Part shown: positions 1 through 743 of the stretch, piece by piece
Numbering within the stretch: position 1 is the stretch's first letter
How the letters are laid out: each line of letters starts with the position of its first letter
Source: Escherichia coli
GTDB lineage: Bacteria > Pseudomonadota > Gammaproteobacteria > Enterobacterales > Enterobacteriaceae
Strand: one strand, 5' to 3'
Assembly (NCBI RefSeq): GCF_003334335.1
Contig: NZ_QOWQ01000152.1
DNA length: 743 nucleotides
Position numbers and translations under genes: made by a program
The notes under the pieces: generated by a model
What the model was told of the DNA's origin: nothing
What the model saw: only the letters and a program-made list of their open reading frames with translations
Databases searched by the model: none

Positions 1-464
1 GGTAACGCAACACCTGCTGGCTGAGGAAAGGCTTTACCATCGGTTTCCGCTACGGATGCAGCTTCCGGCTCTGCCGGTAAATCAGCGCCCGGTATGCAGT
101 AACGAAATTTACCACCCTGATTCACGCGAATCAGACGCCCTTTGCTGATTGCCATGGCCAGCGATGAATTCGCCCGGCGGGAGGTAATCCCGAACATCAG
201 TGCCAGCTCATCCGCCGTTTGTGGGCCATGTTGTTCAATCGCCTCAGTCAGCATTTGCGCTGTCACTTTCGGTACCGGTGACACCGGTTCACTTTCACCA
301 GCCTGAATCAGCCACCACATCGAACCCTTGTTATCCGCTTCACCGCGGCGCTTCAGTTTCCACAGTTCGTTGACCGCATCTTCACGGCTGATTCCAAGGC
401 GGGCCGCCACTACCTGTGAAGAGGCTCTTTTCAGTGCTTTCAGTGCGTCAAATACGGTTTCCAT
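1..464 (-). CDS. Partial CDS: start codon in window, 3' end runs off at position 1. Hypothetical protein with two tandem winged-helix-like segments; putative DNA-binding regulator, family not recognised.
   Basis: Hand translation of the reverse complement from ATG at 464..462 gives 154 codons with no stop to the window edge: [160 protein letters not shown] Shine-Dalgarno lies 7 nt upstream of the ATG. Codon usage is rich in CTG, GCG, CCG, GAA and AAA. The product call is inference from sequence pattern only. Confidence 0.8.
263..296. repeat. 15-bp palindrome (ACCGGTG-a-CACCGGT, 274..288) flanked by 8-bp direct repeats (tcactttc at 263..270 and 289..296)
   Basis: Read directly. The palindrome has 7-bp arms around a single central base, with GGTACC overlapping at 271..276. 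The whole structure lies inside the downstream CDS, in the segment encoding [12 protein letters not shown] between the two winged-helix-like segments. Confidence 0.85.
429..446. repeat. Perfect tandem duplication of a 9-bp unit (plus strand tttcagtgc x2)
   Basis: Read directly: 429..437 and 438..446 are both tttcagtgc. On the minus strand this is GCA CTG AAA twice, encoding ALK-ALK at residues 7..12 of the downstream CDS. Confidence 0.9.
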
Positions 465-497: not shown

Positions 498-737
498 TCA
501 AATAAAACCAGCTGCCTTCCGGCGTTCGTATTCCTGTTTCAGCCGTTCAATTGGCGTTGGCCCTTGCGGGTGTTTCGCCCCTTCCAGTTGTCGTCGCACT
601 GGCGGAACACTCATCCCGTTACCAACATGCTTTGCCCATTTCGTCAGTTGCCGTTCCGCAAGTCGTTTTAACTCACCCTGCGTCATCTGGCGCTCAATCC
701 CTCTGGTACGCATTTCGAGGCAGATGTGGTACAGCAC
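498..737 (-). CDS. Hypothetical small basic protein (79 aa as given by the ORF track, using GTG at 737..735). Start is uncertain and the frame remains open to the window edge at 743.
   Basis: Supplied ORF track; my re-translation matches it, with TGA stop at 500..498. Net charge is strongly basic (about 16 K/R against 8 D/E). Codon usage is mostly enterobacterial with some rare codons (AGA, GGG, CGA). Alternative in-frame ATG starts are at 713..711 and 686..684; none has a convincing Shine-Dalgarno (AGAGGG sits about 12 nt upstream of the ATG at 686). Codons 740..738 (P) and 743..741 (Q) are in frame with no stop, so the gene may start beyond the window. Confidence 0.55.
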   Translation of the reverse strand: MLYHICLEMRTRGIERQMTQGELKRLAERQLTKWAKHVGNGMSVPPVRRQLEGAKHPQGPTPIERLKQEYERRKAAGFI

Positions 738-743
738 AGGCTG

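Follow-up and report, generated by a model that had tools for sequence, protein, structure and literature searches.

The question raised by this locus is whether a palindrome bracketed by a direct repeat, located inside a protein-coding gene of an Escherichia coli prophage, is a working DNA element or an incidental product of the sequence that encodes the protein. The stretch of DNA that was analysed, in the following referred to as the window, comprises 743 bases and is 100% identical to a part of the chromosome of E. coli JNEC-KY176 that lies inside a lambdoid prophage. The arrangement of interest extends from position 263 to position 296. A first-pass annotation had placed two ideas next to each other, namely a coding by-product of a repetitive peptide and a symmetric site that might be bound by a protein, for example in autoregulation, or recognized by a restriction-modification system.

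Host gene and anatomy of the site

The features of the window that are relevant to this question are given below. The positions that the first-pass annotation had assigned to the two repeat copies, the palindrome and GGTACC turned out to be exact throughout, both by direct reading and by repeat and palindrome scans.

1-464, minus strand: gene of a DUF1627-domain protein, first 154 of 238 codons (translation, Pfam, PHROG, RefSeq and AlphaFold2)
263-270: left copy of the 8-bp direct repeat TCACTTTC; coding strand G-AAA-GTG-A, from the third base of P65 through K66 and V67 to the first base of T68
271-276: GGTACC, a KpnI-type palindrome that overlaps the 15-mer at its left end and is derived from GTA-CC of V64-P65
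274-288: perfect 7+1+7 palindrome ACCGGTGaCACCGGT / ACCGGTGACACCGGT; gene nucleotides 177-191, comprising the third base of E59 and all codons up to and including V64
289-296: right copy of the 8-bp direct repeat TCACTTTC; coding strand GAA-AGT-GA of E57-S58-E59
498-743, minus strand: 3' end of the gene for replication protein P, the lambdoid helicase loader (PHROG 109, P-like helicase loader, E=1.7e-23; RefSeq annotation)

The gene that hosts the site is a DUF1627 (PF07789) prophage gene in a lambdoid replication module. It starts with an ATG codon at positions 464-462, extends past the start of the window and is separated from the P gene by a spacer of 33 nucleotides that includes a GGAGG ribosome-binding site. 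The deduced protein matched Pfam family PF07789 with E=1.6e-37 over residues 76-154 and PHROG 630 with E=1.4e-70, both of which are families of unknown function, and the identical locus in RefSeq is annotated as a DUF1627 domain-containing protein beside replication protein P. In all loci examined, the DUF1627 gene is located downstream of a gene encoding either replication protein P or an ATP-binding (YdaV/DnaC-like) protein. A search of NCBIfam with the DUF1627 protein returned no family, and a literature search on DUF1627 returned nothing on its function, the sole mention being that of a neighbour of the PasA/PasC sRNA loci. Residues 71-120, which belong to the second winged-helix domain, gave a weak match to PHROG 142, annotated as 'Ren-like exclusion protein' (E=3e-5), and this domain also weakly matched the Pfam AlkZ-like winged-helix region (E=2.5e-4). 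The DUF1627 gene directly follows P, the position that ren has in phage lambda.

Two further sequence features were noted in the window. A perfect 9-nt tandem repeat, TTTCAGTGC in two copies at positions 429-446 (GCACTGAAA twice on the coding strand), corresponds to codons 7-12 of the minus-strand gene, which specify ALK-ALK within the first helix of the N-terminal winged-helix domain; since these codons read ALKAMGK in other DUF1627 branches, the ALK-ALK repeat is specific to the window-type allele. Additionally, a weak terminator-like hairpin of five pairs with a T-run (GCCGGAAGGCAGCTGGT TTTATTTGAA) is present on the minus strand at positions 507-523, where it overlaps the final codons of the P gene together with its stop codon, shortly before the start of the DUF1627 gene. 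The scan for terminator-like sites yielded two in the window, with 0.7 expected.

An AlphaFold2 model of the DUF1627 protein, computed from a 9-sequence alignment and reaching a mean pLDDT of 69, predicts a first winged helix-turn-helix-like domain at residues 1-52 (helices 4-11, 16-23 and 27-39; strands 43-46 and 49-52) and a second one at residues 69-123, which forms the N-terminal part of DUF1627 (helices 69-79, 84-91 and 95-107; strands 112-116 and 119-123). The intervening residues 56-64 have pLDDT values below 50. The model thus supports the earlier proposal that the site falls into a linker between two winged-helix-like segments. With respect to the remainder of the protein, which was modelled from the full gene at 19748-20464 of locus L001, residues 129-186 form a long region of low confidence that nevertheless contains the invariant motif LPAEP…GKA.PQPA, and residues 182-237 are predicted to form one long C-terminal helix, in which the stretch VQKWERVCAALRELNKH is highly conserved; the model suggests that this helix may serve for interaction or as a coiled coil.

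On the coding (minus) strand the site reads GAA AGT GAA CCG GTG TCA CCG GTA CCG AAA GTG ACA and specifies the peptide E57 S58 E59 P60 V61 S62 P63 V64 P65 K66 V67 T68. The two arms of ACCGGTGACACCGGT comprise seven nucleotides each and are fully complementary about one central base. The same 15-mer can also be described as two self-complementary AgeI-type ACCGGT hexamers that are 9 nt apart plus one extra G/C pair, and each ACCGGT results from a codon ending in A (GAA or TCA) that is followed by Pro-Val encoded as CCG-GTN. The flanking repeat is of a different kind: its two GAAAGTGA copies are read in different frames, as GAA-AGT-GA and as G-AAA-GTG-A, and contribute to the peptides ESE and (P)KVT, respectively, so that the direct repeat does not reflect a repeated peptide. 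Window position 285, which is gene nucleotide 180 and the third base of codon P60, differs among relatives, the coding-strand base being G, A or T. Two forms of the site are set side by side here.

ACCGGTGTCACCGGT
ACCAGTGTCACCGGT

Chance levels and variation among alleles

The frequency with which such an arrangement occurs by chance was determined with two null models. Dinucleotide shuffling of the window (3000 replicates) produced a palindrome with arms of 7 or longer and a loop no larger than 3 in 14% and an 8-mer direct repeat within 40 nt in 34%, whereas a palindrome bracketed by a repeat was found in none (0/3000). In 20000 synonymous-codon shuffles of the gene, which keep the protein and the codon usage, the exact 15-mer was recovered in 1.5% and the linker contained an 8-mer direct repeat in 2.9%; the two coincided in two shuffles (0.01%). 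The single parts are unremarkable, but the peptide does not require the composite, which is rare a priori. Since the composite is rare under these simple nulls, the notion of a coding by-product does not fully predict it. On the other hand, this rarity counts for less than it seems, as the pattern was chosen post hoc and by eye from among many windows and pattern types, and such post hoc selection of an unusual pattern is part of the explanation for the composite. Comparative evidence is a better test than shuffles.

The site was compared in about 170 loci, which were obtained from two scans of viral contigs along with several RefSeq loci. Among 80 viral-contig loci that align without gaps at 93-100% DNA identity, 47 carry CCA instead of CCG at P60, a change that leaves the peptide unaltered and removes the fourth of the seven palindrome pairs. 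Pooling of the data and removal of duplicates yielded 40 distinct window-type alleles. The palindrome is intact in 16 of these alleles and broken by A at gene nucleotide 180 in 22, of which 21 differ within the 15-mer by the silent CCG to CCA change alone and the remaining one (L110) additionally by P63S; the last two alleles are a double variant with a T-A pair (L031) and a diverged sequence (L109). A search of 5,426 complete E. coli genomes with exact 60-mers found the intact palindrome in 238 and the silent variant in 141. Moreover, the strain from which the window derives contains a DUF1627 gene in a second prophage that encodes the identical linker peptide and has a broken palindrome. Homologues of unchanged peptide with a palindrome-breaking synonymous change were thus found at all three levels, in 22 of 40 alleles, in 141 as against 238 genomes and within a single strain, and this is the outcome that the first-pass annotation had named as refuting a functional site.

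The chromosome of this strain (NZ_AP045172.1) matches the window at three places, including 3369283-3370025 and 3130285-3130344. The second place lies in a separate P-DUF1627 module, the DUF1627 protein of which is 91% identical to that of the window, with differences concentrated in residues 157-185. Up to six copies per genome were detected in the collection of complete genomes.

A comparison of variability among the window-type alleles pointed in the same direction as the silent variant. Nine of the 15 positions in the palindrome are variable, whereas in the rest of the gene 100 of 447 are (Fisher p=0.002), an excess that rests largely on the single diverged allele L109; third positions across all 34 nt of the site show ordinary variability. 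The site thus has no excess of conservation and is, if anything, more variable than its surroundings, contrary to what a conserved site would show. Covariation was confined to one pair, and the number of pairs changed on both sides was reached by 429 of 500 shuffles. As to the flanking repeat, the L082-type allele lacks the right copy of TCACTTTC, the bases there agreeing with the left copy at only 4 of 8 positions; this allele has a 5+1+5 palindrome at the same centre.

At larger distances, the linker itself is replaced. DUF1627 genes with 60-75% protein identity have linkers that are unalignable and differ in length, from 10 to 30 residues, examples being NNVQQEQPAPAELPEETTTATVA, GEGESRVTEERPVKSEAQDMLTGEVEQ and IEATEMVTKT, and BLAST matches of such distant relatives stop at about window position 248 and resume at about 352, so that they flank the linker. 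Most of these more distant DUF1627 linkers are free of palindromes with arms of 6 or longer, and a search for an enrichment of linker palindromes across the family detected arms of at least 6 only in the window type and in the PAELP subtype (L087 and L156), with none in the other types. In the latter two loci, the linker (…QPAPAELPEE…) contains a perfect 7+2+7 palindrome of its own, CCGGCAGaaCTGCCGG, at gene nucleotides 190-205, which is not present in sister alleles with PEEQPEE or PTEQPEE and is probably another incidental product of proline (CCG) codons. The N-terminal domain was observed to co-vary with the type of upstream loader gene, encoding either replication protein P or a DnaC/YdaV-like ATP-binding protein, which suggests a shuffling of modules around the linker.

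Alternative explanations

Of the explanations that compete with an incidental pattern, the one that fares best attributes no cellular function to the site either. In this case the sequence would be a mutational hotspot, at which a quasipalindrome folds into a hairpin during replication and template switching, by copying one arm from the other, introduces coupled symmetric changes, among them amino-acid changes in the linker, and repeatedly regenerates perfect palindromes. Mutation by template switching at quasipalindromes is well established for E. coli (PMC7202029). The relevant pair is formed by gene nucleotides 180 and 188, which appear as G-C in the window, as the mismatch A-C in the common variant and as T-A in L031, L082/L095 and L109. 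The L031 allele, which was detected in a single viral contig and in two of the 5426 genomes, has kept a perfect 7+1+7 dyad, ACCTGTGTCACAGGT, by means of two changes on opposite arms, G to T at nucleotide 180 and C to A at nucleotide 188, the latter of which is non-synonymous (P63Q). Neither of the two single-step intermediates occurred as an exact 60-mer in the 5426 genomes, and the intermediate with T at 180 and C at 188, the sole one scanned there, was absent from the viral contigs as well. A hotspot would also be in line with the significantly higher variability of the palindrome positions, an argument that is weakened by its dependence on L109.

The coupled change, however, amounts to a single event, and ancestral retention or recombination accounts for it equally well. 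The T and A residues are common to the outgroup-like alleles L082, L095 and L109, and L031 has further scattered sites in common with them; the simplest reading of these alleles is that the T-A state, with Ser or Pro at position 60 and Gln63, may be the older one and that the G-C pair of the window arose via point changes. Furthermore, the abundant A-C mismatch alleles have not been 'corrected'. The site resembles the quasipalindrome hotspots described for E. coli (PMC7202029) in being a short inverted repeat with perfect and one-mismatch forms and one coupled change, and it differs from them in that this one event is explicable by ancestry with the T-A alleles of the outgroup. On balance, we regard a mutational hotspot as improbable. 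Were it real, DNA secondary structure and not selection on the protein would drive amino-acid change in the hypervariable linker of a prophage protein.

Even less probable is a protein-binding site within the gene, either an operator for autoregulation by the DUF1627 protein or a site for another phage regulator. A perfect 15-bp dyad has the typical shape of an operator for a dimeric helix-turn-helix protein, the encoded protein is predicted to contain two winged helix-turn-helix-like domains, and the composite is rare by chance. The dyad is nonetheless broken silently in about half of the closest alleles and in the second prophage of the same strain, and it is absent from the other DUF1627 linker types. 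Likewise, copies elsewhere are missing. A search of the 40.7-kb prophage locus for ACCGGTGNCACCGGT with up to two mismatches detected the site itself and only one other match, with two mismatches, in a DUF826 gene; in each of the approximately 170 fetched loci that carries the 15-mer, it occurs once and at the same position of the gene, with no second copy near any promoter, in the 40.7-kb locus or in the flanks of the 170 loci. The half-site ACCGGTG was counted 13 times, with 4.8 expected, and its matches fall into coding sequence, including the host genes lolC and ycfT; an interpretation of this excess as a regulon was rejected, as the matches in host genes fit the common codon usage ACC-GGT. 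The scans detected no promoter-like or terminator-like site at 263-296 and no promoter-like site anywhere in the window. Compared with the operators of lambdoid repressor and Cro or of other dimeric helix-turn-helix and winged-helix proteins, the site agrees in its perfect dyad of about 15 bp and in its location in a lambdoid prophage beside genes of helix-turn-helix proteins, whereas it is intragenic, far from a promoter, present in a single copy, not conserved and silently broken. Neither conservation at synonymous sites nor further copies or a placement at a promoter, as known from conserved operators, were found.

The symmetry might also act at the RNA level, in the form of an mRNA hairpin with a 6-bp ACCGGU/ACCGGU stem and a 3-nt loop that causes a ribosome pause between the two domains or contributes to mRNA stability; this appears very unlikely. 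The centroid fold of the sense RNA does contain the 6-bp hairpin, and a pause might conceivably be of use at a point that separates two folding domains. The minimum-free-energy structure, in contrast, lacks the hairpin, the folding energy is ordinary on either strand (z=-0.65 for sense, where 54 of 200 shuffles reached an equal or better energy, and -0.87 for antisense), and the CCA variant removes a central G-C pair in half of the alleles. There was no match in Rfam, and the other linker types are devoid of such a stem. A stability above that of shuffled sequences or covariation in support of a helix, which are characteristic of structured RNAs, was not seen.

A cluster of restriction-modification targets (two ACCGGT, one GGTACC and two CCGG) involved in phage-host conflict is just as hard to sustain, as the three 6-bp restriction-type palindromes within 18 bp follow directly from Pro-Val and Val-Pro codons, one ACCGGT is silently lost in half of the alleles and the locus shows no depletion of ACCGGT (15 occurrences against 8 expected), even though a DNA methyltransferase gene is present in the same prophage. 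AgeI- and KpnI-type systems are not known to be typical of E. coli, which counts against this reading as well. The suggestions of a site for protein binding, autoregulation or restriction-modification thus found no support, given a dyad that is broken silently and a motif that is present in single copy.

Two possible origins of the arrangement were rejected. An insertion with target-site duplication would account for the sequence of direct repeat, inverted repeat and direct repeat, a layout in which the site is similar to the footprint of a MITE or a REP-like element. The L082-type allele (83% identical) and the L109-type allele, however, align without gaps across the site, which excludes an insertion, and an insert of 26 bp would in any case shift the reading frame. 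A tandem 9-nt duplication is not supported either, as the units ACCGGTGTC and ACCGGTACC of the window agree in 7 of 9 bases, compared with 5 of 9 in L031 and 3 of 9 in L082. The units are less alike in L031, with the T-A state that is likely to be older, and the direct-repeat character would consequently have arisen by point changes.

Origin and meaning of the pattern

Taking these comparisons together, we consider the site to be, with a probability of roughly 0.85, an incidental sequence pattern in a disordered and fast-evolving linker rich in Pro, Val, Ser and Glu, and not a working DNA element. The palindrome results from the two Pro-Val dipeptides of the linker, which are encoded as CCG-GTN after codons ending in A and in this way generate ACCGGT twice, together with one extra G/C pair. 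The flanking 8-bp repeat is a chance match of GAA-AGT-GA and G-AAA-GTG-A in two frames. About half of the closest alleles have lost the palindrome through a silent change in the third position of P60, with no visible consequence, and from this we infer that the symmetry is not under selection and that the site has no function of its own. The explanation by a repetitive peptide that the first-pass annotation had offered is accordingly largely right for the palindrome, with its PVSPVP peptide and its position in the linker, and fails for the 8-bp repeat, which is a match across frames.

As in other incidental palindromes in low-complexity linkers of phage mosaic genes, the linker is hypervariable, with length and sequence that differ by allele, and the symmetry, which varies at silent sites, is a product of repeated dipeptides and codon preference. 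The present case differs in that a 7+1+7 dyad with a flanking 8-bp repeat is rarer under shuffling than is usual for such patterns.

The comparison removes a candidate regulatory or restriction site from consideration and indicates that a striking arrangement of repeat, palindrome and repeat can arise in a disordered Pro-Val-rich linker and remain unconserved. The DUF1627 prophage protein is common in Shiga-toxin-producing and other E. coli. With its two predicted winged-helix-like domains, its hypervariable linker and the location of its gene in the position of ren, this protein may merit study more than the DNA motif.
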